From: a candidate division WWE3 bacterium
GTDB taxonomy: Bacteria > Patescibacteriota > WWE3 > UBA101185 > UBA10185
DNA length: 64,000 nt
Assembly: GCA_016182565.1 (NCBI GenBank)
Contig: JACPGI010000003.1
Location: 70,206 to 134,205, forward strand
Reading direction: 5' to 3'
Shown: in pieces, positions 11,867 to 57,580 of the stretch
Layout of the letters: the number at the start of each line of letters is the position of its first letter
Position numbering within the stretch: the stretch's first letter is position 1
Made by a program: the position numbers and the translations under genes
Notes under the pieces: generated by a model
Seen by the model: the letters and a program-made list of their open reading frames with translations, nothing else
Databases searched by the model: none
What the model was told of the DNA's origin: nothing

Positions 11867-12493
11867 ATGAGTAAAAATAGAAAAATATTATTTGCAACCA
11901 CTAACGAAAACAAAATAAAAAGAATTCAGAAGTTAATAAGAGATTTAGACATAGAGTTACTAACCCTCTCAGATATTCCAGAAAAGATCGATGAGCCGAA
12001 TGAATTTGGAGAGAATGCTGTGGAAATAGCCAAAAACAAAGCAATTTACTATTGGGAGGCGACTGGTAAAAAAATGCCGGTTCTTACCCAGGATGATACT
12101 ATGGACTTTTTGGGGAATGTTTCACCGGAGGATGATCCAAAAACTGCAATTAAGGAACCTGTTGTAAAAGCGTTTGGAGAGTACTCAATATCTAATGCGA
12201 TAGCCTATTACTCGAAGCTTGCAGAAAGATATGGTGGTGAAATTGACTTTGCATTTAGATACGGACATGGTTTTGTAAGTGAAGATGGGGCTAAAGGTGC
12301 TAGTTCTTCATTGTATGCCAAGCTTGTGAAAGACCCAAAGGGCATAGATAAAGTGGGTAAATATCCTTTACGTGCATTAACTAAACTTAAGATTGGGAGT
12401 AATTATGTTTATTCCGAAGACTCTACAGAAGAAGAAAAAGTTACAGCAGACTCTGATATTAAACGTGCTTTAGTTGAGTTACTTTGTTCTTAA
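11867..12493 (+). CDS. Ham1/RdgB-like non-canonical purine NTP pyrophosphatase (divergent)
   Basis: N-terminal KILFATTNENKIKRIQ...EPNEFGENAVEIAKNKA...PVLTQDD follows the ITPase pattern (KIVFATGNxGK...E.g.tf.eNA..KA...PvlADDSGL). The C-terminal half is divergent. Confidence 0.5.
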   Translation: MSKNRKILFATTNENKIKRIQKLIRDLDIELLTLSDIPEKIDEPNEFGENAVEIAKNKAIYYWEATGKKMPVLTQDDTMDFLGNVSPEDDPKTAIKEPVVKAFGEYSISNAIAYYSKLAERYGGEIDFAFRYGHGFVSEDGAKGASSSLYAKLVKDPKGIDKVGKYPLRALTKLKIGSNYVYSEDSTEEEKVTADSDIKRALVELLCS

Positions 12494-13263
12494 TTACCTG
12501 TATTTTCGTGCTTATTTCTGGAATTAAAATATGCACAATAGTCACAGTCTATATTCGCTTCGGGAATAGTGTTGGAGTTCAGACACTTTTTAATATCCAG
12601 TAGTTTATTTTCAATCCAGCTATCGTTTCCTTTATATTCTATGAGGGTCATTTCAAATTCAAGCTTGCCGTCGAATGTCTGCTTTTCAGTGTTGCCGTTG
12701 CAGTACACAAAATATCCACTTTCGCGGACTTTATACCCATTTTGCCTTAACAGCCACTGATAAACTTCCATTTGCCTTTTATAACCTTCGTGCCAATCTT
12801 TATCTAGTTGAGTTATTTCCTCGCTCTTACTTGTAGCTTTGTAGTCTACAACTATATATTCACCTTTTGAGTTTATCCACAGGTCGTCTAACGCCCCAAA
12901 AACATACAAATTTGTGGGTTTATGAAAAAACTGAATTCCCTTAAAATTATCTCTCCAAGTATCAAGATCTTTGTGGCTGGCCGGTTTTGCGTCAACTTTG
13001 TACTTAGCTATTAAAGGATGTTGCGTATCGCCTGTGCGATATGTATCAAACTCTTTTTTCAGTAAATGGTCTACAGCGCTGTTTAGGGCAAAAGGATATC
13101 CTGGGGGTCTACCTGTCCCCAATACCCTATCCAAATAGAAACATCTTGGGCAATCTATAAACAAGTCTATTTTTGACCTACTTAACTTAAATGGTTCTTT
13201 TGAATCCTTGAAATATAGGTATTTATCGGTTTTTTGCGAGTTATAGTATTTGCTCATATTCAT
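12490..13263 (-). CDS. Cas4/RecB-family PD-(D/E)XK nuclease with Cys clusters
   Basis: Motifs GALDDLW (D), EYIVVDYKAT (ExK) and QMEVYQWLL (RecB QxxxY) are present, with an N-terminal CPRC and a C-terminal C...CDYC consistent with an Fe-S/Zn site. There is no CRISPR context. Confidence 0.7.
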   Translation of the reverse strand: MNMSKYYNSQKTDKYLYFKDSKEPFKLSRSKIDLFIDCPRCFYLDRVLGTGRPPGYPFALNSAVDHLLKKEFDTYRTGDTQHPLIAKYKVDAKPASHKDLDTWRDNFKGIQFFHKPTNLYVFGALDDLWINSKGEYIVVDYKATSKSEEITQLDKDWHEGYKRQMEVYQWLLRQNGYKVRESGYFVYCNGNTEKQTFDGKLEFEMTLIEYKGNDSWIENKLLDIKKCLNSNTIPEANIDCDYCAYFNSRNKHENTGN

Positions 13264-13277
13264 CTGCTACTAATTTA

Positions 13278-14441
13278 TTAGCGATTTCCCTTAGCTCTAT
13301 TATGCGTTTTGCACAGCATTTGACAATTTTTATTAGTCGTTGCCCCACCTTTGCTCCATGCTGCTACATGGTCAGCATCCATTTCATTGAATTCCCAAAT
13401 TTTGCTGTTATTGGCATCGTGTCCAATAGTACAAAGTGGACAATTTGATATGTCTTTAGCTCTGGCGGTATCTGTCTGCATTGTATATACCGATTTTTTC
13501 GTTGCCTCATCAAACACACGGACCTCTAACAATTTTGTGTCTATAGAATTTCCTAGAATATACTCAAAAATACCTTTACGATTTTTAACATAGGGGTCGC
13601 TATAAAGCTTGTGTACTTCTTTTGATACTTTCACAGGATCATAGGCTTTTTTATGATACTGTTCATACAGTCGTCCCCACTCGAGACTGCGCATTTCACT
13701 TTCCACATCGACAAAAGTGCCCGATATCCAATCTAACACCGTGTTGAAATAGGTTTTTAATTCACTAATGCTTTTATCGTAACGATGACGACTCATGTAG
13801 TCCCCAATACTACCCTTGCTAACCCAATCTAAAGCTTGTTCCAAAAATTCCTGTCTGTTGGCGCTGCCTTTTATGTAAACGCCCCACTTTTGGATGTTTG
13901 CGTTTTGGCTGTTACTAAACTCTTCTTTGCATAATGTTACGAACGGACCAGAATACACTGCATTCAACAATTCTTGTTCGTTTAGCGGGATCCCTGCAAT
14001 ATTAATTGTTTTAAACCACTCTTTTATCTCGCTTTCAGTACCCTCACATTCATAGATGAGTAATGTAGTTTCCAAAATTTTGATTTGTTTGTCCTTAGCG
14101 ATACCGCTAAAATACTGTTCCATGCCGTTTTCATCTTTGATGGCAAATTTGTTAGTAACAAACCTACCTATGCTAGTGATTCGTTGTTGTCCGTCAAGAA
14201 CTTCAAATTTAGCCTCATTTACTTTTGTAAAATAAATTAAACCTATTGGGTACCCTTTTAGAATGGATTCAATGACAGCAACATCTTTTTTGCCATCAGC
14301 ATATATATAGTTACGTTGATACTCGGGTTGGATTGTGAGTTTACCTGATAGTCCGAACAGCCCTTTTCCTTCGAGTTCATTGTAAACGAACCCTTCGCAT
14401 ATATTTTTAATTGAAATACTTGTATTTAATGTTGTTTTCAT
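13278..14441 (-). CDS. GmrSD-like type IV restriction enzyme (DUF262 ParB-like NTPase plus C-terminal HNH)
   Basis: The N-terminus has the DUF262 signature IQPEYQRNY...LDGQQRITS. The C-terminus has the HNH motif [12 protein letters not shown]...[15 protein letters not shown]. Confidence 0.75.
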
Positions 14442-15532
14442 TTTGTTACTCGCTTTCTTACAAATAATCTTTTATAAACTTCTTTACCCTTCAAATAAGA
14501 CCCTCTGCCATAAATATTGTTAGGATCTTGGTTAACACCACGATTTGATCCTAAAATCTCAAATTGTTTGGGATTATATTTATCTAAAAAGCTAACGGGT
14601 ACACCCATCACCCCCTTATAGTCACAGGGAATGCATTTAACAGTAGAAACTTCTATCGCATTGTAATTATCATATTTTTCAAACGGTTTTTTAGTAACGA
14701 ACTTTATTATATCTGCTTCGGTCATTAATGATAAAAATTCGTGAAGTCGCCCATGGTCTAAATTTGTAAACCAGCGAACGCCTTGAACTCTAGTTATAAA
14801 TACCTTTTCTCCATTTTCATTTGTTCTTATTTCTCTTACTTGCTCTAAGTTGGCAATATTCTCTGGTATCTCATAAAACATAGCACCTCCATTAATTTTA
14901 TAGTTGTTGCCAAGCCAAACTCTATTGTCTTTGATCAGCGGGAAAACTTCTATGTATGTAATTGCGTTTAAATTACCTATAAGCAGAAATTGTTTTTTAG
15001 CTTCCACAATCCAAGCTAGAAATTCGCGGAATAAAGAAAAAGGAGGATTTGTGATAATAATGTCTGCTTCGTTACGTAGTTTCTTAAGCTCGTCACTGCG
15101 GAAATCCCCATCACCTTCAAGGTAGTGCCATTCAAGATCTTCGATATTAACCTTTCCGTCGCTAGTATTATCTTTTGTTAAAGTAAATATTTTTCCGTTA
15201 CTAATAGTTTTATTTGCATCATAAAGTGGGTTATTTGTTTCGAAAAGTGTTGGTTGATAAGAGCTTTTATAGTTTTTACTCTTTGTTGCGTAACTGGTGC
15301 TTATTAACTTTTTTATGCCAAAGCGTTCGAAGTTTTGAGCAAAATACTTAGTAAAGTTACTCCATTCTGGATCATCGCACGGTAGTAATATAGTTTTATT
15401 GCGAAAAATATCGGGGTTGTACTCTATATAAGCGGAAACCTCTTTCTCTATATCAAAATATTGAGTATAAAACTCATCATTTTTAGCAGCCTTTGCTAAC
15501 TGCAATTTCTTATTTGCAAATTCATTTTTCAT
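14438..15532 (-). CDS. M.EcoRI-family N6-adenine DNA methyltransferase
   Basis: N-terminal [22 protein letters not shown]...[13 protein letters not shown] closely matches M.EcoRI (SDEFYTQYCDIENELQYY...CNCDDP). The catalytic motif [10 protein letters not shown], is present. The start was moved to the internal Met ([10 protein letters not shown]) that aligns with the M.EcoRI N-terminus. Confidence 0.8.
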
Positions 15533-15621
15533 TGTCGTAGTGGTTTTAGAGAATAGAAACCAATGAAGGTCATCCATTCTCCGTGCAACCTTTCGGTAAC
15601 ACACATACTCTTTCGAGCATG

Positions 15622-15671
15622 ACCACTACGACATGATAGAGAAATGGATGACCATCTCTGCGTCGTAGTGG
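15622..15671. promoter_or_regulatory. Perfect 10 bp inverted repeat (CCACTACGAC/GTCGTAGTGG) with a 29 nt spacer, upstream of the MTase
   Basis: Seen directly: CCACTACGAC at 15623-15632 and GTCGTAGTGG at 15662-15671, with a nested AGAGA/TCTCT repeat in the spacer. It lies in a 314 bp divergent intergenic region. Confidence 0.3.
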
Positions 15672-15846
15672 ATTTGAAACCATGCTTAATTTATGAAGTT
15701 AAGTTTAGGTCTATTACCTTATTAAGTTGTACTAAGATCACGTTCTAATGTGATCACTAGAAGATTATACCCCAATAGTTTTCTAGTATGTAGGTTTTTG
15801 TAATAAATGCTGATTTTCGTTGTTACGGCAAGTATAAAGCGGTATA

Positions 15847-16512
15847 ATGTATGTTAGTATTATGGAAAAAAATAAAAAAATAACAACTACATCTAGAGAT
15901 GTAGAAACTACAAAAGAAAAACCTATCCTCGATAATTTAGAGAAACTTGTAAAAACGGAATCGCAGGGATTTCGACCTAGAAAACTCTTGGTAGATTTGG
16001 ATACCGCATATAAAGCTTACAACGAAGTTAAAGGAACCAAGAAAGCAGAAGATGCCGAAAAAACTTTAAATAATGTTTATAACGATGCAGTTTACGCATA
16101 TTCATTAGACAATCATGTTGCTATAACAGGTTCTGTGACCAAAACCTACAGACCATTGGTTGTAGGCATGACTGAACAGCTTATGGCGGAATTTGATTGT
16201 AAAGCACCGCATGAGAAGGCTTTAGCAGAGCTAATCGCAAGCTCGTACGCTCGTTATATCCAATTCACAAGTTTTTTTAATAATGCTCAAAATATAGATT
16301 ATCTGAGTACTGAAAAAACAAACTACTATACTATGTTTAGCAAAGAGGCCGACAAGGCACATAGGCAGTTTACTAACGCCCTCATGACATTAAAACAAAT
16401 AAAAACACCTGTTCCAACGGTGAACGTAATGGCGAAGAACGCTTTTGTAGCACAAAACCAGCAGTTAAACACTTTTGGTAATGAGAAACAAAAGGAAATC
16501 GTTAATGGGTAA
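15847..16512 (+). CDS. Hypothetical alpha-helical protein, first gene of the RT-containing gene string
   Basis: 221 aa ORF co-oriented with the downstream RT and overlapping it; no recognisable motif. Confidence 0.3.
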   Translation: MYVSIMEKNKKITTTSRDVETTKEKPILDNLEKLVKTESQGFRPRKLLVDLDTAYKAYNEVKGTKKAEDAEKTLNNVYNDAVYAYSLDNHVAITGSVTKTYRPLVVGMTEQLMAEFDCKAPHEKALAELIASSYARYIQFTSFFNNAQNIDYLSTEKTNYYTMFSKEADKAHRQFTNALMTLKQIKTPVPTVNVMAKNAFVAQNQQLNTFGNEKQKEIVNG

Positions 16513-16825
16513 TTATTCAGGAAATAAAATTTTAGTAGATGCTTGTCCAAAAATTACTTTAAAAGGAGTATTTGATGTTGCAAAAGATCAACTTCTAACT
16601 GAGCTTATGAAAAGAACGGCAAATGTTGCCGGATTTGATGTTGAATTTTCATCGAGTTCTCTTGCACACGGCGGAAAACGACTTTGGTTTAAGTGCCCTA
16701 TATGCAGTTCTCGTGCAGGTGTTTTATATAAGCACTTTTTAACTCAACAAGTTGGGTGTAGGACATGCTTAAATCTTGACTATAAAAGTAGAAGGTATAA
16801 AGGTATGACAGAAAACTCGGTGTAG
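16475..16825 (+). CDS. Hypothetical zinc-ribbon protein (CPIC...CRTC)
   Basis: 116 aa ORF with a C-x2-C...C-x2-C pattern. It overlaps the upstream ORF and precedes the RT. Confidence 0.3.
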   Translation: MVMRNKRKSLMGNYSGNKILVDACPKITLKGVFDVAKDQLLTELMKRTANVAGFDVEFSSSSLAHGGKRLWFKCPICSSRAGVLYKHFLTQQVGCRTCLNLDYKSRRYKGMTENSV

Positions 16826-16865
16826 CCTTTAGATTTACATAATAAAACCTGCCCAAAAAATTAAA

Positions 16866-18987
16866 ATGAATATGAAAAACGATATATTGTTTGATAATTT
16901 AGTAAATCCGAATAATTTGGAAAAAGCTTTTGATTACTTACTTATTGAAATAGAAGGGTCAAGCTTAGCCCTCGATCCACTGTGGACCCCTGCGGTATTA
17001 GCAATTAAAAAGCATAGAAAAGAATATTTCATTGCTCTTAGTGAGCTTTTGAGAAGTGGTGATTTTCATGCTGATTCAGCAACGTATTTTAAATTTCCCA
17101 AGGACAGTTTAGGTATAAGACCGGTGGCGGTACTATCTGTAACAGATAGGATAGTTTATCAAGCAATTTTTTTACAGCCAGTTTTAGGTAATATCCTTAA
17201 ATCCAAGTTTGTAACTCCACCTTGCTATACGCCTAATATTTCCTTAGGTCATGAAAAAACTTTCCTTGAAGATTGGCACATAAAATGGGATAGCTACATA
17301 GAGGATCAAGTTTTTGCTTATGTGGAAGGGTACAGATATAAGGTTGAGTTAGATGTAAAATCTTTTTTTTGATAACATAAATCACAAACTTATAAGAGAT
17401 TTTTTGACCAAAGATTGTGGAATCAACGGTACAAAAGTAATAGACATACTAATAAACCTATTAGAGACATGGGCTCACAAACCAGGCTTTGGTGTGCCCC
17501 AAGGACCGGAGGCATCTATATTTCTCTCATCCGCATATTTATCAAAATTTGATGAAAAAGCTTTGTCTGTTGGTAACGAGTTAGACTTCAAGATATTTAG
17601 ATATAATGATGACCTTAGTTTAATGGCAAAATCCCCAGAAATCCTCCATCAGGTTATAGAGATTTTATCAGGATATTTGTTTGATATATTCCTTGATCTA
17701 AACGGTAAAACAGCGTTTTACTTGCTTGATCAAAAAGAGATATCAAAACTAAATAAGAGGAGAATTTACTCTCCTTACAACGACGACGAAGATTCTGCTT
17801 ATACTCTTGCCACCATAGAGGATGAAGTTCCTGGATATTTAGAAAAGTTAGCAATAAATAAAAAACTTGAGCAACACGAAATATCGGCCCTGAAGTATTA
17901 CTTAAAGAGCGCAAAAAATAAAGCGTATTTCAAGCAACTTATTGATCTGCTAGATAAATCTCACTCCTTTTCATTATATATATGTAGATATGTACAAAAA
18001 TTTGTTGATGATGGAACCGTTTTTGCTTATTTGTTGAATGCCTATAACAAAAAGCATCTTTATTCGTGGACAAAGTTTTGGGTACTAAAGACTTTAATAT
18101 CATCGAAGTTATTTCAAAACTCCAAATATAAATATGATACAAAAGCAATGGTCTTGGATTCTTTTAATGATAAAAGTTGGGAAATTAGAGCACTTTGTTT
18201 ATATGTAGCCGAAGTTTTTGGTTTCCTAAGTGCTCCAACTATAACAATCGGAAAGTATTATAGATCCGCGGAAAATATCTACGAAAAGAGCATGACATCG
18301 TATTTACTCGGAAATAGAAAAGAATACAATTCCCTGTCGGAATTGTTAAGGAATGAATGTGTAGACCTGCAAATAATTGCTTACAGTTTTTTGAATAAAT
18401 TTGAATTGACACAGCTTCCAAACGATCTTTCACAATTTAGTCAAAAGTTGTTCAATATAAACGATGTCGAAGCAAAAAATGATTCTAATGTACAAATACC
18501 AAACTCTTTACTCGATCTTATTAGTGAAAGTGGAGCTGTTCACGTGACATTAGACACGAGTAAATTGAAAAAAGAGTTAGGTTTAACCTGGAACCATAAG
18601 GGTAGTATTTTGAAAAAATCAAAGCAGGTAGCCCATTGGTTGGAACAGAAGGAAACAGGTCATATCGTTATGGATGGAACGTACATATTGTCTAATCCTA
18701 ATGTTGATAGTGAAAACTGGACATTTATATCGTATGTTATTAGCCGATCTGGTAAGCAAATTACACGCAAAGAAATTAACGCTGATTCATCAGAACGTGT
18801 GTTACGCCCATTCAATAACATCCTTAATGATCTTGGATTTAAGGGTGAGATTAAGAAGTTATTTTTCCCTAAGACAGGCGATGACTCCGTAAGGTTTTTC
18901 TGTAAAATAAAATACGGAGATATGAAAACAATGTTGGTAGACGAAGAAAAGCTTAAAAGCCAGCTTAAAAAATTAAAGAGAATTTGA
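16866..18987 (+). CDS. Single-chain reverse transcriptase (Abi/DRT-like, about 700 aa with a C-terminal helical extension), interrupted by a frameshift in a T8 tract at 17363-17370
   Basis: RT motifs are all present: 1/2 PKDSLGIRPVAVLSVTDRIVYQAIF, A KVELDVKSFF|DNINHKL (split by the frameshift), B' GVPQGPEASIFLSSAYL, C RYNDDLSL (YxDD) and D/E LDLNGKTAFY. The C-terminal 430 aa or so is helical and non-RT. ORF1 (16866-17372) and ORF2 (17404-18987) join if one T is removed. Confidence 0.8.
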
Positions 18988-19058
18988 AGTTCTACGAACC
19001 ACCACGAAAGACTATGAAACACGGCTAGTAACCTCAGTAATGTTGCTATTCTTCCTGT

Positions 19059-19316
19059 GTGAACAACAGGATTAATAAAATACAAATTAATATTTATCGC
19101 AGTACAGACCTCGCTATTAGTAGCTACCTATCGCTTTCATATACCCTACTGGGTTTAGAGAAAATTGATGGTAATAGGTACGAGTTTGTTTTTGAAAAAA
19201 CCCCCGAATTAGAGAAATCAGTAGAATCATTTTTTAATAACACAGCAACCGTTTCACCTTCCGATTATTTCAATAGTATAAAAAGTTTAAAAAGCCGGAT
19301 TTATTCCAGGAGCTAA
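19059..19316 (+). CDS. Small hypothetical protein (element-borne)
   Basis: ORF only; part of a co-oriented gene string. Confidence 0.25.
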   Translation: MNNRINKIQINIYRSTDLAISSYLSLSYTLLGLEKIDGNRYEFVFEKTPELEKSVESFFNNTATVSPSDYFNSIKSLKSRIYSRS

Positions 19317-19555
19317 TGATGTTGCCTAAAGATGCAGTAACCGAATTTGCAGGTCTTTACCTCAAAAACTTTGGTGTTCAGTTGACATCGGAGGAAGCAG
19401 AGGAAAGGGCAAATAGAGTTTTTAACTTTTTCAAAACGATAATCAGGCCAGTTGAAGAAAATAACAAATTAGTGGAAGAAGTCCCCGGCCAGGAATCTGA
19501 AGCAGAAAGGAAAAATAAAACCTATGGCGATAAAAAGAAAAGTAAAAAAAGCTGA
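19316..19555 (+). CDS. Small hypothetical protein (element-borne)
   Basis: ORF with an ATGA overlap with the upstream ORF. Confidence 0.25.
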   Translation: MMLPKDAVTEFAGLYLKNFGVQLTSEEAEERANRVFNFFKTIIRPVEENNKLVEEVPGQESEAERKNKTYGDKKKSKKS

Positions 19556-19907
19556 AGGTATTAAACCAATACCCGCGGATATCTATCCTGCAAAGCTAGT
19601 TTCCATCGCAGAAGGTGATGGTGACTATGGTAAGTACTTCAAACTTGAATTTGAAGTTACCGACGGAACTTACTCCGGTGAAAAGAGAACCATCATAGCC
19701 AGCGACAAGCTTTCACGAGGTCAAAAGGGAGGCTCAAAGCTTCTTGGTATCTTGGAAACTTTAACAGGCAAGCAATTGGATTTTGACCAGGAAATTGATA
19801 TCGAAAGCTATCTTGGTTCAAGATGCAGGATATTGGTTGATGAAGCCGAAACCAAGGGTGACATCCAAATTCAGAATGTCGGTAAAGTGATGCCACCCAA
19901 AGAGTAG
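19524..19907 (+). CDS. Small hypothetical protein (element-borne)
   Basis: ORF only. Confidence 0.3.
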   Translation: MAIKRKVKKAEGIKPIPADIYPAKLVSIAEGDGDYGKYFKLEFEVTDGTYSGEKRTIIASDKLSRGQKGGSKLLGILETLTGKQLDFDQEIDIESYLGSRCRILVDEAETKGDIQIQNVGKVMPPKE

Positions 19908-19971
19908 AAAGTATCAAATTAAGGAGACAACGGGGAGGGTTTCGCGACTCTCCCCCTCCGGAAGAATCTTT

Positions 19972-22335
19972 ATGCAACAAGATTATAACAAATTAAATAA
20001 ACAACCGTCTGAGTTTTTAGACGAGTGGAAAATTGAATATGATGACAAAGGCAAGGAACTTGTGTTAGCCTGTTTGTTTTCTGACTGCGATAGTGAGGGA
20101 AACACCAAACACCTATACATGGACGCAGACACGGGGCAATTTTGGTGCCACAAATGCCATAAGAAAGGTAACCTTGTTACTGTTGCCGAGCATTTGAATC
20201 TAAACCCATCAGACCTATTTGAAAAGCCTAAAACGAAAACTGTAAGACTAAAAAGTGGTAGAAAGGTTGAACTAAAAGCAGAACCCAAGTCCGAGGAGTT
20301 ACTAGAAAAAGCCAGTAGTTACCATAACAACCTATCCGTTGAACAACGTGAATATCTGAACAAGAGGGGCATAACAAACGCTACGGTTGATACCCGGCTT
20401 ATTGGTGAGAGCGAAATATATGGAGTTAAAAGAATCACACTCCCTGTTTTTGATAAAAATGGAAATGTAATAAGTATCAAGGCTAGGGTTGTTCAAGAGT
20501 TAGAAGAAGCTACAGATGCAAAATATGTGTATTTCCCTACGGGTGCAAAGGCATCGCTTTACGGTTTAGACCTATTAGAAAAAAGTATTTCTGATTTTGC
20601 GATTATTTCCGAAGGTGAGTTTGATTCGCTAATTCTTTCACAATGGGGATACACTTCAGTTTCTTCTACCGGTGGAGCTGGAACATTTTCATCTGATTGG
20701 GTTTTATTTTTTGATAATTTCCAAAAGATATATTTTTGCTATGACAACGACAAGGCGGGCAAAGAAGGCGCAATTGAACACGCCAAAAAGTTTAAAAACA
20801 AAAAAGTATTTATAGTAGAAATACCACAAATTGAGGGTGTAAAAGATGTAACAGAATTTGCAACGGTTGCAGGAAATACAAAAGAAGATTTTGAATTGCT
20901 TTTGAAAAATGCCAAAGAATATAATCCTTACAGTCCAGAGTTCCTAAATCTTGAGTTTGGCGAGCCAATCAAAGAGTTTATTCCGTCACAGTTTTATGAT
21001 GCAGACACTACGTTTTTCACTATTCCGTTAAACATTAAAAATAATGAGGAAAGTCCATTCAGGGTTATAACCTCAAACAAAGAACTTTATACGCTAGATG
21101 AAGTTAAGGATAAGTTTAACTACAAAATAGTAAGAAATCCTGATTTTATGCAGCGTTGGAGTTCAGATGGTGTAAGGGCATATTTATCCGGCAAAGGTGC
21201 ATCTAGCTATAATATTACGTTGCAGGAGCTGGTTTCTTTCCTGAAACAATATGTTGACCTGTCAAACGAAAACTGGTATTTGGTTATAGCCCTATGGCTT
21301 TGGGGAACTTACTTTTATCGTATCTTTAATAGTTACCCCTATTTCAACGTAAACGGCTTGATGGGCTGTGGTAAGTCAAAGTTATTGGAAGTTGGCTCAT
21401 TTCTTGCTTTCAACGGTGAGTTTTTAGTTACCTCTACCCCGGCTTTTGTTATTGATTGTATAAACGATAATTGTGCAACGCTATTCTTGGACGAAGTTGA
21501 AAATCTTAAAAATGCTGCAAATCCCGACACACAAACAATGGTTCAAATGCTTAACTCTGGTTATAAGAAGGGTCCCAAGAAAGGTAAGAAAGACCCAAGC
21601 GGTAAAGGTAAAGGCTGGAACTCAATAAAACTAGACCCTTACAGCCCAAAAATGATTGCTGGTATCAAAAACATTAGCGACACGCTTATTTCTAGATCAA
21701 TAAATATGACTATGGTTTTGAGCAACAATAATGAAATCAAGAATAAAGAATTAAGCGAATCTGATACAAGATTGAGCAGTTATAGAGATACTTTCTATTA
21801 CTCTGCAATGGAACTTCACACCGATATTAAGGATATTTACAATCAACTAACCGAAACAGAAGTTTTTGGTAGAAATTGGGAAGTTTGGAGACCACTATTT
21901 TGCATCGCTTTAGCACTGAATAGCCAAAACCCTGAAAGTGAACCTGTTAACTACAACAAAGTTAGAACCTTTGCATTGGAAATAATAAAAAACCAATCAG
22001 GAATAAATGCAGAAAACCAAAGCACAATCCAAATGCTTGTGGCGTTTAGAGAAATGATGGTCCGAGATCAAAGATTAAACAACTTTTACACTATGTCGCA
22101 ACTTAAAACCTTTTTACTTGATAATCACGGAGACTATTTTGATTGGCTTGGAGAGTTCAAGGAAAGTGGCATAAGCCGATACATAGGCGATGAGTTAAGA
22201 AAGACCGGGATTGTAACGGAAGCTGCAAAAGCTGTAAAAATTGACGGTAAGACCCAAAGAGGCTTCATTTTGGATAGGAATTTAATAGAAAGGCGTCTTA
22301 AAGCCTACGGTATTGAGTTTGGAGTAACTGCGTAA
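19972..22335 (+). CDS. Primase-helicase (CHC2 zinc finger, TOPRIM, P-loop NTPase)
   Basis: It has a zinc-binding CHKCHKKG, a TOPRIM region (IISEGEFDS...CYDNDKAGKEG) and Walker A GLMGCGKSK in the C-terminal half. This is the architecture of phage/plasmid primase-helicases. Confidence 0.75.
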   Translation: MQQDYNKLNKQPSEFLDEWKIEYDDKGKELVLACLFSDCDSEGNTKHLYMDADTGQFWCHKCHKKGNLVTVAEHLNLNPSDLFEKPKTKTVRLKSGRKVELKAEPKSEELLEKASSYHNNLSVEQREYLNKRGITNATVDTRLIGESEIYGVKRITLPVFDKNGNVISIKARVVQELEEATDAKYVYFPTGAKASLYGLDLLEKSISDFAIISEGEFDSLILSQWGYTSVSSTGGAGTFSSDWVLFFDNFQKIYFCYDNDKAGKEGAIEHAKKFKNKKVFIVEIPQIEGVKDVTEFATVAGNTKEDFELLLKNAKEYNPYSPEFLNLEFGEPIKEFIPSQFYDADTTFFTIPLNIKNNEESPFRVITSNKELYTLDEVKDKFNYKIVRNPDFMQRWSSDGVRAYLSGKGASSYNITLQELVSFLKQYVDLSNENWYLVIALWLWGTYFYRIFNSYPYFNVNGLMGCGKSKLLEVGSFLAFNGEFLVTSTPAFVIDCINDNCATLFLDEVENLKNAANPDTQTMVQMLNSGYKKGPKKGKKDPSGKGKGWNSIKLDPYSPKMIAGIKNISDTLISRSINMTMVLSNNNEIKNKELSESDTRLSSYRDTFYYSAMELHTDIKDIYNQLTETEVFGRNWEVWRPLFCIALALNSQNPESEPVNYNKVRTFALEIIKNQSGINAENQSTIQMLVAFREMMVRDQRLNNFYTMSQLKTFLLDNHGDYFDWLGEFKESGISRYIGDELRKTGIVTEAAKAVKIDGKTQRGFILDRNLIERRLKAYGIEFGVTA

Positions 22336-22486
22336 CTATATGAGGCAAAGTTACTGTAATAACAAACAAAACAGTTGGTTACGAAGTAGGTTACGATATA
22401 CCCCTACCCTACGTAACCCATATCGTAACCAGAGATCTTGCTTGTCCTTACAATATAAACGCAACGCAAGGTTACAAAGTTACAAG
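22324..22486. repeat. Iteron-like cluster of at least nine GTAAC/GGTTAC motifs including an imperfect palindrome of about 54 bp (22377-22430)
   Basis: Seen directly: GGTTACGaagtaGGTTACGATATACCCCTACCCTACGTAACCCATATCGTAACC, plus GTAACTGCGTAACT upstream and GGTTACAAAGTTACAAGG downstream. It lies immediately 3' of the primase-helicase gene. Confidence 0.5.
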
Positions 22487-22493
22487 GAATCTT

Positions 22494-22853
22494 ATGCCAG
22501 TAAAAGATCTGTTGTTAAAAGTAAATAAAGCACAAACTGGAAATCATAGCGTCCATATGATTCAGGAAGTTGTAAAAGAGGTTGACTCCGAAAACCAAGG
22601 AATTCCTGCCACAGAAACCTTTGAGTCGGTTGATCTATCAACACTAAGTTCAAAGGAGCTTTTAGCTTTAAATAAACAGCTAACCTCTTGGCTGGAAACG
22701 CATGAGTGTCAAACAGGAACCGACAATAAGTTGGATATTAACGACAGACCCTATGACCACGAGCTATACCTAAAAAAGCTACGACTGTACGAAGAAACCT
22801 GTGTTGCTTACTTCTCAAGACCGCTTGGCGAGGAGTTGGAAGGTGTCTTATAA
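22494..22853 (+). CDS. Hypothetical protein (element-borne)
   Basis: 119 aa ORF between the primase-helicase and the recombinase. Confidence 0.3.
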   Translation: MPVKDLLLKVNKAQTGNHSVHMIQEVVKEVDSENQGIPATETFESVDLSTLSSKELLALNKQLTSWLETHECQTGTDNKLDINDRPYDHELYLKKLRLYEETCVAYFSRPLGEELEGVL

Positions 22854-22950
22854 CTATGTATAATTTATATGGATACATATGCAAAGATAGTGAAATGGCC
22901 GAATTGGTCTTATATCTTTGCGGATGTATCCAACCAGTTCGGCCATTTTT

Positions 22951-24576
22951 ATGGAAATAAATAGAAACCTTACAGGCTTAAAAGCCATTGAATACAACCG
23001 CAAAAGCTCGGAAGACGAGGAACGCCAAATCGCGTCTCTTGAAGATCAACATGCAGAAAATCAAAAAGTGATTGAAAGACATCAACTTAAAGTTGCAAAG
23101 TGCGACATTATTGAGGAATCTAAATCAGCCAAGAAACCTGGGCGACCGAAGTTTAATAAAATGGCTGAAGATATTGCTAATGGCAAGTATCAGGTTATTG
23201 TGTGTTGGCAGGCAAACCGTTTAGCTCGTAATTCTCGTGATGCTGGTGAAATCATTGGCTTACTTTCCGATAAAAAACTAATAGCAATCGTTACTCCTGG
23301 TAAGATTTACTATAACGGTGGTGAGGACAAACTTCTTCTTTATATCGAATTTGGTATGAGTGAAAAATACAGCGATGACTTATCAGCAAATGTTATTCGC
23401 GGTATGACTTCGAAAGTTGGTAGAGGTTGGTGGCCTGGTAGACCAAAAGTAGGTTATGTAAACATTAAATATGACGGTGAGGAACCTGTTCAGATTATAG
23501 ACGAACAAAGGTTTCCGCTACTCCGCAGAGCGATAGACCTATTTTTAGATGGTAATCACACGGCACCCCGCGTTTTAGAAATATTAAATGACGAGTGGGG
23601 TTTTAAAATGCGAAAAACCAAAAGAACCGGTGGTGGGAAGATGAGCAAAGGTAAGTTTTACAGCTTTTTATCCGACCCTTTTTACTATGGAAAATTGATT
23701 TGGGGCAAAGAGATTGGGGATGTTCATAAAAACCTGAAGCGACTCCTGAGTGAGGACGAGTTTTGGAAAGTACAGGCTCTTATGGGTAAACGCGGACAAG
23801 CAAGACCAAGTGTACATACCAAACTGCCGTTTAGAGGCCTAATTAAGTGCGGTGAGTGCCAAAGCACTTGGATTCCTTATGCTAGACCTAGGCAAACGGT
23901 TGATGGTAGCTTTAAACTGTACGAATATATTAGGTGTAACCACGACGGGATAAGTAAAAAATGTACACAAAAACAAGTAACTATCCAAGAAATTGAGAAA
24001 CAGGTTTTGGAGTTGTTGGACCAGATAACAATCTCGGAGGACTTCTGTAATTGGGCAATTGATTGGATTAAAAAGCAGCATCAAACAGAATCAAGCGCAC
24101 AACTACAAATACTCAAAAATCTTGAAAGTTCTTTGGAACAAATCCAAGGCCGCAAGAATAAGTTAGTAGAAATGTATATGGATAGCCTGTTAGACGGACA
24201 AGCAGACTATAAGAAACGCAAAGCGGATTTGGAAAAAGAGGAACAAGATATACAAAAGGAATTAAACGCCTTGAAAACCAGAACAAACAACTGGATGGAT
24301 TTGGCTATTAAAACCTTCAACTTTGCAAAGAACGCCCGCTATCACTTTGAACATGGAACATTTGAGGATAAGACTTTGATACTTCGCACACTCGGCTCGA
24401 ACTTTTACATGCTTAACGGGAAACTGTGTGTTGACCTAATAAAACCCTTCTTTATTTTCAAAAACAATCAGGATTTAGTAAATGTGCCTTTTGAAACTAT
24501 TGAAAACCCAGAATACGCCGACGTTATGGCCGGAACTGATGATCTTGAACATTGGTTTTTAAAATGGTCGGGGTAG
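22951..24576 (+). CDS. Large serine recombinase (integrase)
   Basis: The N-terminal catalytic domain has YNRKSSEDEERQIASLEDQ and ANRLARN. A recombinase domain and a zinc ribbon (CGECQ...C) follow, then a coiled coil. The stop codon overlaps the 3' end of tRNA-Pro. Confidence 0.8.
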   Translation: MEINRNLTGLKAIEYNRKSSEDEERQIASLEDQHAENQKVIERHQLKVAKCDIIEESKSAKKPGRPKFNKMAEDIANGKYQVIVCWQANRLARNSRDAGEIIGLLSDKKLIAIVTPGKIYYNGGEDKLLLYIEFGMSEKYSDDLSANVIRGMTSKVGRGWWPGRPKVGYVNIKYDGEEPVQIIDEQRFPLLRRAIDLFLDGNHTAPRVLEILNDEWGFKMRKTKRTGGGKMSKGKFYSFLSDPFYYGKLIWGKEIGDVHKNLKRLLSEDEFWKVQALMGKRGQARPSVHTKLPFRGLIKCGECQSTWIPYARPRQTVDGSFKLYEYIRCNHDGISKKCTQKQVTIQEIEKQVLELLDQITISEDFCNWAIDWIKKQHQTESSAQLQILKNLESSLEQIQGRKNKLVEMYMDSLLDGQADYKKRKADLEKEEQDIQKELNALKTRTNNWMDLAIKTFNFAKNARYHFEHGTFEDKTLILRTLGSNFYMLNGKLCVDLIKPFFIFKNNQDLVNVPFETIENPEYADVMAGTDDLEHWFLKWSG

Positions 24577-24641
24577 CAGGACTCGAACCTGCGGCCTCGC
24601 GAACCCGAATCGCGCGCTCTAGCCAACTGAGCTACACCCCG
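24565..24641 (-). tRNA. tRNA-Pro (anticodon CGG)
   Basis: A manual fold of the reverse complement gives a 7 bp acceptor stem (CGGGGTG/TACCCCG), a D-arm, an anticodon stem CGCGA/TCGCG with loop TTCGGGT, a T-arm GCAGG-TTCGAGT-CCTGC and an encoded CCA. Confidence 0.85.
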
Positions 24642-24716
24642 TAAGATCAAAATTTTGTGAGATTGAATGCTACCACCACTTTAGCATAATAATTTACACT
24701 GTTTTTATATAACAAC

Positions 24717-29408: not shown

Positions 29409-29487
29409 TGGTCGGGGTGACAGGACTCGAACCTGCGAATTCTCCGAACCCCCAGCTCGGCGCTTTAGCCAACTAAGCTACACCCCG
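29409..29487 (-). tRNA. tRNA-Pro (anticodon GGG), with an atypical 7 nt variable region
   Basis: The reverse complement CGGGGTGTAGCTTAGTTGGCTAAAGCGCCGAGCTGGGGGTTCGGAGAATTCGCAGGTTCGAGTCCTGTCACCCCGACCA folds as a cloverleaf. The anticodon loop is CTGGGGG and the variable loop AGAATTC contains GAATTC. Confidence 0.7.
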
Positions 29488-30469: not shown

Positions 30470-31888
30470 TCAAAACAGCCTATCCACAATCGTAAAAATA
30501 CTAAACCCACCATAAAAAAGAAATGCTAAGCTCATAGCTACATTTCTAAATAAATTTGGTCTTATTTCTTTTTCTAAGGAAGTATTGTTTAGCCACAGAG
30601 TAAGCCCTGTATGGACAAACATAGCAAAAGCGTTTAATACCGCAGCCGTGATGATAAGTTGTAAAGGCTCCGTAAATCCTAGTAGCAAAACAGAAATACC
30701 GGCAAGTATTTGTAACCATAGAACACAGTAATAAACTTTAGCTACATTTTTTCCATTAAATTTAGTAAAAGTAAGTATTAAATTTTCCGTTAAAATCCTA
30801 CTTGTTGCATCAAATACAGTAAGCTGCGTACCAAACAAAGTCATCCCAGTGATAATTAGAAAAAATATACCTACACCGGACCCTATGATTGTGCCAATAG
30901 TTTTAGCTTCCGCAATTACAAAGTTGATTCCCGATATGTTTTGGTCTGAATTATATGTAGTTACATAAGAAAGTAGCGCAAGAAGTAAAATAGTTATAGA
31001 TCCAGTAAACCAAAATACCAGAAAATGCTCTTTATTTATATTTTTCCACCACTGATTAAAAATTGAAATGTTAGCTGGTGTTATATCAAATTTATTTCCA
31101 CTAAGTGACAACTCTTCCCCGAATTCACCAGCATTTCTATTTGCTCCACCCCCAGTGATAAGACTTTTTATTTTGCCAGCATACTTTCCCATACCGTAAC
31201 CCTTCTCTTTTATATATAACGATTGTGCTAGGTTAAGATTGCCTCCAGCCCCTGCATAAGCAAGTGCTGCTAAAAAAGAAGCAATTGAGATTTCTGCCGG
31301 AAGTAAAAAGTAATTATTTCCTTGACCAACTATTCCAGCCGCAAGATCCTGCCAATGATGTTGTTTTGCCAAAACTATAGACAGTATAAAAATACTAGGT
31401 ACACCAATACTTATTAATATTTTTTGTAGAGTTTCTACCGTTTTATACAAAATTGGGCCAAGTGACAATATAAGCCCCATGATTATAAGTAAGATTATGG
31501 AAAATAATTTTATATTTGTGATCCCAAACACACTACCAAATAATGTTGCTGATGATGCCGCAATTCCCGGCCATGCCCAGGGTATAAAGGTTGATAATAA
31601 AAACCAGTATGGGAGAAGTTTAAATTTACGGTAGAGTCCTACAAAAACACTTTCTCCTTTTGCAAGGGCATATCTTTCTATTTCCATGTTCATAAAAAAT
31701 TGAAATGTGAGTCCAAGAAGCGCTCCCCATATAATACCCATACCAAACTTTGATGCTAAAGAAGGCCAAAGCACAACTTCACCGCTTCCAAGCCCAAGCC
31801 CAAGAATTATAAAAGAAGGTCCAATTAGCTTTGATAGTGGGAGTGCTTGTGGGAGTTGTTTTGTTTGAAGTTCACGGACAGCCATCAT
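30470..31888 (-). CDS. Nramp-like (APC/LeuT-fold) polytopic transporter, divergent
   Basis: About 11 TM segments. The TM1 region LGPSFIILGLGLGSGEV...KFGMGIIWGALL parallels MntH LGPAFIASIAYIDPGNF...KFGYSLLWVLLL, but DPGN is replaced by GSGE. Confidence 0.4.
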   Translation of the reverse strand: MMAVRELQTKQLPQALPLSKLIGPSFIILGLGLGSGEVVLWPSLASKFGMGIIWGALLGLTFQFFMNMEIERYALAKGESVFVGLYRKFKLLPYWFLLSTFIPWAWPGIAASSATLFGSVFGITNIKLFSIILLIIMGLILSLGPILYKTVETLQKILISIGVPSIFILSIVLAKQHHWQDLAAGIVGQGNNYFLLPAEISIASFLAALAYAGAGGNLNLAQSLYIKEKGYGMGKYAGKIKSLITGGGANRNAGEFGEELSLSGNKFDITPANISIFNQWWKNINKEHFLVFWFTGSITILLLALLSYVTTYNSDQNISGINFVIAEAKTIGTIIGSGVGIFFLIITGMTLFGTQLTVFDATSRILTENLILTFTKFNGKNVAKVYYCVLWLQILAGISVLLLGFTEPLQLIITAAVLNAFAMFVHTGLTLWLNNTSLEKEIRPNLFRNVAMSLAFLFYGGFSIFTIVDRLF

Positions 31889-31907
31889 TAGAATCGTAGC
31901 ATTTAAG

Positions 31908-32546
31908 TTAAGCTTTAAAAAGTGTAATCGAAAACATTTTGCGATCTTGGCCAAAAGCAAGTTTTTTGCCCCAAGTGGTTTCGATTTCAGAAAGTTCTTC
32001 TTTTTCTATTTTTTCTACCTTTTCAAGCTCTAGCCCAAGTTTGTTAAATGCAGGTACTATCACTTCTTTAATTCTTTTAGCGTCTATACTATCAAGCGAA
32101 AGTCTATCCGTCTGTGTAGGCTCGGCCTCAGAGGAGTAACCAAATATGATTTGCAGAATTCCATTTGTTTCAAGCCCTAAAACTAAATTTTTCAATAAAT
32201 CTATTTGTGCGTTTGCAATACCACCTAGTAAACTTCCCCAAGGGAAATGTACATATATCTTATCAAACATATTTTCTAGCTCTATTGGAAAAATCTCTAT
32301 TGACCCAAGTATTAAAAGTGTGTTTCTTAGCCTGAATTTATTGATTTTTTTTGAATAAATTTCAAGTTGTTTTTGGTTTGGATCAAGACCAACATAAAAA
32401 ATATGTGGATTCTGCTGCGCATTTTTAAAAACAAAGCGGCCATCCCCCGTACCTATATCCAAGATTTTTTCACTAAAATTTTTGCAAAGTTCTTTAAAAC
32501 CTTTTGCATCTAAATCTTTGATTTTTGATCCTTGAACGACTTTCAT
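31908..32546 (-). CDS. Class I SAM-dependent methyltransferase
   Basis: Motif I is ILDIGTGDGRFVF. The start was moved to the internal Met (MKVVQG). Confidence 0.55.
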   Translation of the reverse strand: MKVVQGSKIKDLDAKGFKELCKNFSEKILDIGTGDGRFVFKNAQQNPHIFYVGLDPNQKQLEIYSKKINKFRLRNTLLILGSIEIFPIELENMFDKIYVHFPWGSLLGGIANAQIDLLKNLVLGLETNGILQIIFGYSSEAEPTQTDRLSLDSIDAKRIKEVIVPAFNKLGLELEKVEKIEKEELSEIETTWGKKLAFGQDRKMFSITLFKA

Positions 32547-32553
32547 ATGTAAA

Positions 32554-33441
32554 TTGTACAATACACACATGCAAAATTTTCCAATAGAGTTAAATGGGGT
32601 GATTCCTGTGTGGCAAGAGATGGGAAATTCTACAAACATAATAGCTAAAAAACTTGCGCAGAAACTAGGGGTTTTAACCTCACATACAGGCACACTTGAC
32701 CCAATGGCAAGCGGAGTGGTGATTGTACTTTCGGGTGAAGTGCGTAAAGAAAAATACGAACTTGCTAGGTGGAAAAAAACTTATGAGTTTGAGGTAGTGT
32801 TTGGAATTGCTACAGATACTTTTGATGGACTAGGTTTAATAACAAATGTCGATAAAAAGATTTTTGAAAATAATTTTTTACAAAATATTAATTTAAACAA
32901 GTTACATTTGCAAAATTTTATAAAAAATTTGGAGCAAAGTTTACCGGAGTTTATAGGTGAATATACTCAGACTGTTCCTGTATACTCGTCTGTAAAATTT
33001 AAAGGTAAACCGCTTCACTACCATGCAAGAAATACTTTTATTGAAAAAGATCATAATGTTGATAACATAATCTTGCCAACTAAAAGTGGTCAAATTTTTG
33101 CTTTAAAAATTTTAAAAAGTTCTACCCAAACTTTACAAAAAATAATAAGTAAAATTATTTTTAATATAAATTTAGTTAAAGGAGATTTTAGACAAGATGA
33201 AATCATTGAGTCTTGGAATAAATTTTTAGTAAAGTGTGAGAACAAAAATATAAAATTAGAGTTGCCCGTGGTTAGATTCAAAGTCGAAATGACAAAAGGT
33301 TTGTATGTAAGATCTTTAGCTACAGATATTGCCCAGAAATTAAATACATATGGGTTTGTGTATGATCTTACTAGGACTAAAAACGGAAAATATTCAAAAA
33401 AAGATTGTTTAACTCTTGAATTATTGAAACTTACCCTTTAA
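32554..33441 (+). CDS. truB: tRNA pseudouridine55 synthase TruB (with insertions)
   Basis: It carries HTGTLDPMASGVVIVLSGE, the TruB catalytic Asp motif. Confidence 0.75.
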   Translation: MYNTHMQNFPIELNGVIPVWQEMGNSTNIIAKKLAQKLGVLTSHTGTLDPMASGVVIVLSGEVRKEKYELARWKKTYEFEVVFGIATDTFDGLGLITNVDKKIFENNFLQNINLNKLHLQNFIKNLEQSLPEFIGEYTQTVPVYSSVKFKGKPLHYHARNTFIEKDHNVDNIILPTKSGQIFALKILKSSTQTLQKIISKIIFNINLVKGDFRQDEIIESWNKFLVKCENKNIKLELPVVRFKVEMTKGLYVRSLATDIAQKLNTYGFVYDLTRTKNGKYSKKDCLTLELLKLTL

Positions 33442-41549: not shown

Positions 41550-41797
41550 ATTGTCTTTCTTAAATTTATAAATATATTTATACCTATCTATATTAGTTTC
41601 AACTTAAACTTAAGTCAAGGTTGTAGTAGTGGTATGGGAAGCCTCATACAATAAGTGTTAATTTTGTTATTGTTAGAGTTACTGAAATTTCTCTTAATTC
41701 ACAACCTATAGCCCACATAATATAGGTCTTTACATCCTATAATATATTATCTATTGTGCCATTGCGTGCTAGCAGTAATTTTTTTGTAAAAGGACAC

Positions 41798-56794: not shown

Positions 56795-57580
56795 TTAGTT
56801 TTTTGCATTGCCTAATCTTTCCTTATTTCCAAAGAATAGATAATTATCGGATACAACAGGGCAGTTTACTTTTTGAATTTTCAAGTTTGGGATAAATTTT
56901 CCTAGTTTCTTAGATGTTGCATCCAAAGTGGTGGTATCATTTTTTTTAATAACTCGATTAAAAATAAGAAATGTGTCATCAGAGGCAAGCTGAGTTAAGT
57001 TTTCAAGGAATTTATCTGATTTTATATTATCCGGATATTGATCTCCCAAATAAGTATCAATAATTATACAATCGAAATGTCTTTCCAGATGATAGTTTTC
57101 TGGCTGTTCTAATACAGTATAAGCGTCGGCAATTATTATTTTATTGTTTGTAAGTTTATCTATTTCAAAGTATTTTTTTGCAATATCAACAATAACCTCA
57201 TCAATTTCAACGGCTGTTGTCTGTAAATTTTTTCCCAGCATTTGGTTTAAAAGTTTAAGCATGGTCCCTGCTCCCATACCAAGTAAGAGAACTGATTTTA
57301 AGTTTGGCACATTTCTTATGATATTTGCAGTTATTTCACCCCACACCTTACTCGTTGTAGATTTCTGGTTCCCTTCGAAGGATTGTACAAGTCCATTTAC
57401 TATTAATTTCTTTGTTTTTCCTATTTGAATCACTTTTATATCACGGCTATATTTTGTGCTTCCTTGAAATAGCACCTTAGGTATTAAAAAATCGAAAATA
57501 AACATATGTGACATAATAATATTAAATGGATTATAACGATATAAGACAGTCAGATAATTGGTCACAATATTTACAAACAT
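56795..57580 (-). CDS. Spermidine-synthase-like (PABS fold) protein
   Basis: VLLLGMGAGTMLKLL...TAVEIDEVIVDIAKKYF...DCIIIDTY parallels SpeE VLIIGGGDGG...VEID..V....KYFP...DVIIVDssDP. Confidence 0.5.
   Translation of the reverse strand: MFVNIVTNYLTVLYRYNPFNIIMSHMFIFDFLIPKVLFQGSTKYSRDIKVIQIGKTKKLIVNGLVQSFEGNQKSTTSKVWGEITANIIRNVPNLKSVLLLGMGAGTMLKLLNQMLGKNLQTTAVEIDEVIVDIAKKYFEIDKLTNNKIIIADAYTVLEQPENYHLERHFDCIIIDTYLGDQYPDNIKSDKFLENLTQLASDDTFLIFNRVIKKNDTTTLDATSKKLGKFIPNLKIQKVNCPVVSDNYLFFGNKERLGNAKN

Follow-up and report, generated by a model that had tools for sequence, protein, structure and literature searches.

A UG/Abi-class reverse transcriptase in a swappable slot of a small integrative element from a candidate division WWE3 bacterium

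We analysed a 64-kb stretch of DNA from a candidate division WWE3 bacterium (contig JACPGI010000003.1 of assembly GCA_016182565.1; AT-rich, 35% GC), which we call the window and within which all positions are numbered. Our focus is a reverse transcriptase (RT) gene on its forward strand. The gene is split by a frameshift, and when one T is removed from a run of eight (T8) it encodes a continuous protein of 706 amino acids (aa). By its profile matches and predicted structure this RT is a Class 1 UG/Abi enzyme, and its gene comes first in the rightward operon of a small integrative element, in a slot that other genes fill in sister elements. The explanation we favour, with a probability of about 55%, is that the RT serves the element in a conflict or defence role and has been inactivated in this genome.

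Classification and predicted architecture

The joined 706-aa protein has a Pfam RVT_1 match at aa 79-281 (E 1.7e-10), and the motif A aspartate D163 and residues Y246, D248 and D249 of the RYNDDL motif are invariant in the family, both among 17 relatives and among 42. In PADLOC the best models are RT_UG19 (8.9e-47, 158 bits, aa 51-557) and RT_UG21 (2.1e-41), with UG22 next; the top 16 matches are all UG/DRT models except for one generic RT model, and the retron-type models RT_II-A and RT_III-A score more weakly (1e-10 to 1e-13). An AlphaFold2 (AF2) model (predicted local distance difference test score, pLDDT, of 71) has a confident RT core followed by helices at residues 311-528 (pLDDT about 75-88). 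These helices make up a predicted alpha-helical repeat domain at aa ~310-530 (about 17794-18456, forward strand), followed by a poorly modelled linker. A weak Pfam HEAT match also falls in the region after the RT core. When the whole chain is used as a Foldseek query, the structural matches are DRT4/UG15, Abi-P2, AbiK, AbiA, DRT6 and DRT9 over about 470-630 columns; the RT core used by itself matches group II intron RTs.

Together, the profiles and the model point to an RT core joined to an alpha-helical repeat domain, which is the Class 1 UG/Abi architecture as set out by Mestre et al. 2022 (PMC9226505). An initial annotation of this DNA had proposed that the RT is a single-chain enzyme of the UG/Abi class whose C-terminal domain is helical, and PADLOC, AF2 and Foldseek bear this out. 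The same annotation described one long helical extension; this holds for aa ~310-530, while the last ~120 residues are predicted to form a separate winged-helix-like domain, discussed below.

Placement within the UG groups is less simple. With the UG19 model, the best of 42 close relatives of the RT reaches 6e-58, compared to 2.8e-173 for true UG19 proteins (P0004-P0010). Because these scores are far lower, and because the C-terminal domain is unrelated to that of UG19-large, we do not regard the RT as a plain UG19 member. Judged by group-model scores, it lies in an unnamed sister clade next to UG19 and UG21, which the current UG models do not appear to cover.

The RT core raises another possibility, namely that this is a retroelement RT (of a group II intron, a retron or a diversity-generating retroelement) that copies a nearby RNA such as the LOOT RNA described below. 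Among PDB entries, group II intron RT domains match the sequence profile of the core best (E 7e-25), and a structured RNA does lie about 1.1 kb upstream of the RT. We nevertheless find this idea scarcely credible. Searches with Rfam returned no group II intron RNA in the window at the gathering score and none in 15400-19400 at E up to 1, and no match to a retron or other retroelement RNA family in the window; a search for a template/variable repeat pair also found none. Maturase and endonuclease domains are absent, and what follows the palm is an Abi/DRT-like helical repeat and then the predicted winged helix. With 706 aa, the protein is also well beyond the size of a retron RT (about 300-350 aa). 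The earlier claim that excluded group II intron, retron and Cas1-linked RTs agrees with the PADLOC, Rfam and Foldseek results.

Reading frame and lesion of the RT gene

On re-reading, the coordinates and sequence given for the RT open reading frames (ORFs) proved correct. The first ORF (16866..17372, forward strand, 168 aa; E 1.3e-65 with a local RT-family hidden Markov model, HMM) encodes the fingers, RT motifs 1-2 and the start of motif A (aa 1-168). It ends in ...ELDVKSFF inside the T8 run at 17363..17370, where the frameshift creates a TGA stop. The rest of the gene lies in the +1 frame on the same strand (17371..18987) and encodes palm motifs A-E to ~aa 300, the helical repeat, the linker and the C-terminal domain; the ORF called in this frame spans 17404..18987 (527 aa), and the frame is open upstream to ...FFDNINHKL. 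The break in ELDVKSFF/DNINH thus falls four residues past the motif A aspartate. With T7 the gene would be in frame, and the joined protein aligns end to end with intact homologues of 705-710 aa at 62-66% identity, confirming the previously suggested frameshift within motif A. We found no lesion elsewhere in the 706 codons.

Homologues read TCC TTT TTC GAC at the lesion site, with neither a long T run nor a frameshift, and the long T run is therefore specific to this genome. It is one of three homopolymers of at least eight bases in the 64 kb; the only other T8 runs of the window are at 32345-32352 and 56940-56947. The Logan assembly of SRR12113420, for which the underlying reads may be the same, is 100% identical over window positions 14404-21987 (7.6 kb), T8 included, so the frameshift is not one assembler's quirk and the lesion is real at the level of assemblies. 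Another member of the clade, L098 (403-2517), is independently inactivated by an in-frame TAG (…FIQHK-TAG-NFGIRK…).

A P-site UUU followed by a stop codon in the A site is the prfB-type +1 context, and the frame-0 codons at the T8 run, UCU UUU UUU UGA, match it. The run might accordingly act as a switch that keeps full-length RT low or variable, through +1 ribosomal slippage at UUU-UGA, RNA polymerase slippage or T7/T8 phase variation. A +1 slip would restore exactly the conserved KSFFDNINH, the other codons are intact, and low expression would suit a potentially toxic enzyme. We consider a switch unlikely, however, given that the T run and the frameshift are not conserved, that no Shine-Dalgarno-like stimulator is evident upstream of T8, that two assemblies agree on T8, and that the TAG in L098 shows that simple decay occurs in this RT family. 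Because the UUU-UGA context is not conserved, it looks like a recent lesion. The window copy was probably inactivated by insertion of one T in motif A and is probably dead in this genome; slippage could yield a trace of full-length RT at most.

A 33-nucleotide (nt) imperfect direct repeat (79% identical; 16844-16876 and 18956-18988) brackets the RT ORF from just before the ATG to the stop. It is probably a product of chance in A-rich DNA, and may be a trace of cassette exchange.

The slot and the integrative element

The element that carries the RT has a rightward operon in which the slot gene is followed by a gene for a DUF5659 protein, small genes, a Toprim primase and a large serine recombinase, and which ends at a tRNA-Pro gene. 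We define the slot as the position at the head of this operon, just ahead of DUF5659, and surveyed it in two ways. An RT-anchored metagenome scan gave 31 clade members, 25 of them with downstream sequence. Where the downstream region of clade loci is readable, it holds DUF5659 (85-97 aa), a 60-80-aa gene, the Toprim primase, one or two small genes and the large serine recombinase, and then host genes. All 25 loci have core element genes, 22 with DUF5659 and three with the small gene and the recombinase. The RT clade occurs only in this one family of small integrative elements, mostly in genomes of the Candidate Phyla Radiation (CPR, Patescibacteria). A scan of IMG/VR found no relatives of the RT family, so the RT elements are not among the predicted viral contigs there.

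The second scan was anchored on the primase and used one genome per species. It yielded 48 loci, mostly from Patescibacteria, of which about 40 have the DUF5659-primase-recombinase core and eight have the RT, which is thus present in roughly a fifth of elements. In every element the slot holds a gene on the same strand, which encodes 190-987 aa and ends 50-200 nt before DUF5659. The closest element to that of the window, L037, has a primase that is 92% identical and DNA that is 85% identical over window positions 19319-24652, with homology ending just past the tRNA-Pro gene, yet it carries a different gene in place of both the RT and DUF5659. The slot gene is therefore swappable between sister elements.

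In the window the element spans roughly 12 kb (about 12490-24652), with host housekeeping genes to the left of ~12490 and the end of L037 homology, at 24652, on the right. Its identity as an integrative element follows from the recombinase at its end, the adjoining tRNA gene, the homology break against L037 and the host genes on the left. The first core gene 3' of the RT is DUF5659 (19059..19316, forward strand), whose product is 80% identical to that of an L001 gene with Pfam PF18903. DUF5659 is found in about 40 element loci, and in the literature we found no mention of it. The core replication genes follow on the same strand (19316..22335) and encode 79-aa and 127-aa proteins and a 787-aa Toprim_2 primase. 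The large serine recombinase (22918..24576, forward strand; local HMM E 3e-271, with homologues that match Pfam Resolvase and Zn_ribbon_recom) forms the right end. Its ORF overlaps the 3' end of the tRNA-Pro(CGG) gene at the right junction (24565..24641, reverse strand) by 12 nt (24565-24576), the two lying on opposite strands. We found no direct repeats of the tRNA that could serve as attachment sites, as expected for a serine recombinase. A second tRNA-Pro gene, tRNA-Pro(GGG), is at 29409-29487.

Leftward from the control region, on the reverse strand, Pfam identifies an EcoRI-type adenine methyltransferase (14438-15532), a GmrSD_N-HNH protein (13278-14441) and a PD-(D/E)XK/Cas4-like nuclease (12490-13263). 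The mobile island with restriction-type genes that had been predicted here is thus genuine, with the GmrSD_N-HNH and methyltransferase genes on the RT's left side. In sister elements the leftward cargo consists of type I or type III restriction systems, Mrr, or conflict genes of the SMEK/CTD12 and SLFN types. In L085 (1-8786) the cargo comprises DUF2326, MC6/MC8, SMEK_N/CTD12 and SLFN_AlbA_2, which reinforces the view of it as conflict cargo. The PD-(D/E)XK/Cas4-like protein is 80.6% identical to its counterpart in L006 (1387-2145) despite the differing cargo of the two elements, compared to only 62% for the RT, and its gene may belong to the backbone, at the element's left end.

The C-terminal domain and the triple repeat

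The last ~120 aa of the RT (aa ~585-706; 18619..18984, forward strand) carry the motif PNxDSEN...NDLGFKGEIKKLFFP and are modelled as an OmpR/PhoB-like winged helix, which is likely to bind DNA. A PDB sequence search with a profile of this C-terminal domain returned nothing meaningful. The same tail recurs at the C-terminus of RT-less slot proteins in L061 (272 aa), L071 (190 aa) and L085 (P0176, 229 aa), the last of these in an element with a different replication gene. RTs of a second subclade have another tail, which they have in common with eight RT-less slot proteins and which is unrelated to the first. Because the tails differ between RT subclades and recur in RT-less proteins, the RT and helical-repeat module has been joined to at least two element-specific tails.

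We considered and rejected two simpler descriptions of the tail. One C-terminal domain common to all slot proteins does not fit, as the two main types are unrelated and several slot occupants are singletons. An equivalent of the HEPN-like tail of UG19-large does not fit either: the invariant alignment columns that the two seemed to share are artefacts, and hhalign finds no relation between the window-type or second-type tail and the UG19-large C-terminus with its H..R......H motif (probability 0.0-0.1).

Seven bases past the RT stop codon, and ahead of DUF5659, begin three direct repeats of (C)TAYGAAA with 10-bp spacing (18994..19018, forward strand), which we regard as a candidate operator. 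The pattern is unique in the window, where 0.01 matches would be expected. All window-clade RT loci have it at this position, and the 129 loci contain no further instance. In L085, four similar TAAGAA repeats, spaced by ~10 nt, follow the RT-less slot gene. Elements with the second tail have palindromes instead of direct repeats in the spacer between the slot gene and DUF5659. In L031, L033, L060, L064, L067, L047, L053 and L076 this spacer contains two palindrome copies (CTGAAAnnTTCAG or GGTGAnnnTCACC), the second of which lies just ahead of a conserved CATATAGnGnGGG. The spacer repeats look like operators that change with the type of C-terminal domain. Domains of the OmpR/PhoB type bind direct repeats one helical turn apart, and the position and geometry of the triple repeat suggest that the RT tail may bind it.

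Upstream genes, promoter and LOOT RNA

The two small forward-strand ORFs upstream of the RT, and their overlap, are as initially annotated. The first (15847..16512) encodes a 221-aa helical protein that has homologues in other elements and gave no Pfam, PADLOC or PHROG match; the second (16475..16825) encodes a 116-aa zinc-ribbon protein (CPIC...CRTC). A promoter-like TTGTTA-N17-TATAAT at 15820..15848 (forward strand) marks the head of the rightward operon. It is the best match in the region, with 10 of 12 positions, and is kept in L001 and L038 as TTGTTmC...GCGGTATAAT. Since the conserved TATAAT box occupies 15843-15848, the true start of the 221-aa ORF is suggested to be the ATG at 15862.

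These two genes had been grouped with the RT as a three-gene defence module. The three genes are on the same strand, tightly packed and probably under one promoter, and multi-gene UG systems exist (PMC9226505). The distribution of the small genes speaks strongly against such a module, which we think very improbable. RT-less L037 has homologues of both (42-44% identity) upstream of an unrelated 346-aa slot gene, and in L033, L042 and L074 the homologues lie between primase and recombinase. The zinc-ribbon half of the 116-aa protein is widespread, occurring in about 35 element loci and again usually between primase and recombinase. In turn, the nearest RT orthologues have a gene for a 142-152-aa helix-turn-helix (HTH) protein upstream (L001, L006, L038-40) or no such gene (L031, L033, L035). 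The 221-aa and 116-aa genes are backbone parts of the element and not partners of the RT.

Further upstream, on the reverse strand, is a LOOT RNA (Rfam RF03000) at 15584..15711, which scores 59.6 bits against a gathering score of 46.4 and covers model positions 1-121. We built a LOOT covariance model from six copies and ran it over the element loci. It detected LOOT in 15 of the 48 primase-anchored loci, at the same place and in the same orientation; 14 of these loci are RT-less. A few RT loci also have LOOT (L001, L060, L113 and L116), and L006 and most RT loci lack it. In every element locus LOOT lies on the opposite strand, 80-450 nt upstream of the first rightward gene, which is usually the slot gene. 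Further LOOT loci are L061, L070, L056, L042, L046, L082, L049, L067, L073, L048, L052, L076, L068 and L081. Four IMG/VR viral contigs carry LOOT without an RT.

LOOT belongs to the divergent control region of the element and not to the RT. We considered LOOT as a partner or template of the RT and rejected it on the strength of the RT-less LOOT loci and viral contigs, the RT loci without LOOT, and the heterogeneous genes that lie downstream of LOOT. Its location on the other strand and its distribution count equally against a retroelement that would copy it.

Function

If the RT has a conflict or defence role, as we favour, then by analogy with AbiK, Abi-P2 and DRT4 it would, when triggered, make untemplated and probably protein-primed DNA. 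This synthesis would help the element in its conflicts with phages or competing elements, and the RT would work in parallel with the restriction-type cargo that lies across the control region. The tail would bind the triple 10-bp-spaced repeat just 3' of the gene, and this would tie the RT protein to the control region or regulate the DUF5659-primase operon. Untemplated chemistry is expected because the catalytic residues are conserved and Class 1 enzymes make untemplated DNA: untemplated synthesis is attributed to Class 1 DRTs in PMC13174585, and DRT4 makes random single-stranded DNA without a template (PMC12783706). An accessory conflict gene also fits the patchy presence of the RT, the defence-rich cargo and the two independently broken copies.

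Several points weigh against this explanation. Individual genomic loci led Mestre et al. to predict that UG19 has a defence role, and for UG21 their prediction was inconclusive (PMC9226505); the RT clade falls in neither group, and its activity is taken by analogy from other enzymes. The other occupants of the slot do not identify it as a defence hotspot, because 30 RT-less slot proteins gave essentially no Pfam or PADLOC matches. DUF5659, rather than the RT tail, could bind the triple repeat. With the window copy broken, nothing may function at this locus. Finally, confinement to one element family, at the head of a replication operon, could equally fit a part in the life cycle of the element.

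In that case the RT-winged-helix protein would be a regulator resembling an immunity repressor, or an origin-binding factor, of the DUF5659-primase-recombinase operon, and its RT part would be a sensor or would make DNA for replication or induction of the element. Much of the genomic context agrees with such a role. Members of the RT family occur in no other family of elements and invariably head the operon. Between the window and L037, the slot gene is exchanged together with DUF5659, much like the immunity cassettes of phages. The C-terminal domain is similar to folds that bind DNA, the operator-like repeats track the tail type (direct repeats in one case, palindromes before CATATAGnGnGGG in the other), and the divergent, structured LOOT RNA lies in the same control region. 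However, about four in five elements have no RT, which is therefore not needed for replication or integration; the Class 1 UG/Abi RTs whose function has been demonstrated are all defence enzymes (PMC9226505, PMC12783706); and in the window and in L098 the RT is broken while the core genes of the element are intact. On balance we take a life-cycle factor to be possible but distinctly less probable than a conflict role.

A bolder proposal, about which we are doubtful, is that slot proteins are modular, with an operator-binding tail and a swappable N-terminal module. The RT, as the N-terminal module in about a fifth of elements, would then be a DNA-synthesising sensor or effector tethered to the triple repeat, LOOT and promoter, with its firing coupled to induction or silencing of the element. 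Such a protein would resemble a polymerase-carrying immunity-region protein and not free-standing defence cargo.

Defence-type RTs are known mainly from cultivable Proteobacteria and Firmicutes, and to our knowledge most UG groups remain untested. The present analysis defines an RT clade that is confined to small integrative elements, mostly in CPR genomes, and whose tail domains are common to non-RT proteins at the same position. It yields an RT whose tail probably binds DNA, together with a candidate site 7 bp past the RT stop codon, and a family of roughly 12-kb elements with restriction and conflict genes. The orphan LOOT RNA gains a consistent genomic home in the serine-recombinase integrative elements of Patescibacteria. 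If the RT is wired into the control of the element, this would be a new use of Abi-type polymerases; if it is not, the gene would be one more prophage-style defence gene, dead in this genome.

Other features of the window

Two observations concern the window outside the element. Overlapping same-strand ORFs at 30470..31960 and 31908..32693 (reverse strand) may be another split gene, and a very large ORF of 2567 aa is at 41756-49459 (forward strand).

Comparison with known systems

UG19, especially UG19-large, and UG21 are the closest known groups. They give the best HMM matches (aa 51-557), and the RT resembles them in its length of ~700 aa and in the order of RT core, helical repeat and extra C-terminal domain. 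However, true UG19 members outscore the window clade by about 120 orders of magnitude, and the HEPN-like C-terminal domain of UG19-large is unrelated to the tail of the window RT. A HEPN-like domain is neither fused to the window RT nor encoded next door (as cluster 1465), where the neighbours are DUF5659 and the primase. Conversely, the true UG19 loci (L008-L012) lack the DUF5659-primase-recombinase context.

Abi-P2 and AbiK are Abi polymerases that are primed by protein and need no template, and Abi-P2 fills a variable site in an integrated mobile element, the P2 prophage. The window RT is similar to Abi-P2 and AbiK in combining an RT core with a helical C-terminal fold (Foldseek matches 7r08, 7r07 and 7z0z), although its identity to them is 13-17% and they have no terminal winged-helix domain. 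DRT4/UG15, likewise a single-gene Class 1 RT, is among the best full-length structural matches (9vdo, 9l9s). It differs in belonging to another UG group, in lacking a DNA-binding tail and in not being bound to one family of mobile elements.

A Class 1 RT combined with a DNA-binding or priming module is also described for UG32 (HTH fusion) and DRT7/UG10 (primase fusion) in PMC9226505 and bioRxiv 10.64898/2026.02.16.706125. The window RT is comparable in that it has a predicted winged-helix tail and is always beside a primase gene. It differs in that the window primase is a separate element gene of the Toprim type that is present with or without the RT, and in that the tail is modelled as OmpR/PhoB-like and is common to non-RT proteins.

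The lambdoid cI/cro immunity regions and the defence hotspots of P2/P4-like elements offer an analogy for a control-point region that is swapped between elements. The window proteins are unrelated to those of immunity cassettes, and a repressor function would be by analogy only; the likeness lies in the arrangement itself: at a divergent control point, a short segment and the candidate operators that go with it are swapped between otherwise near-identical elements, as between the window and L037.

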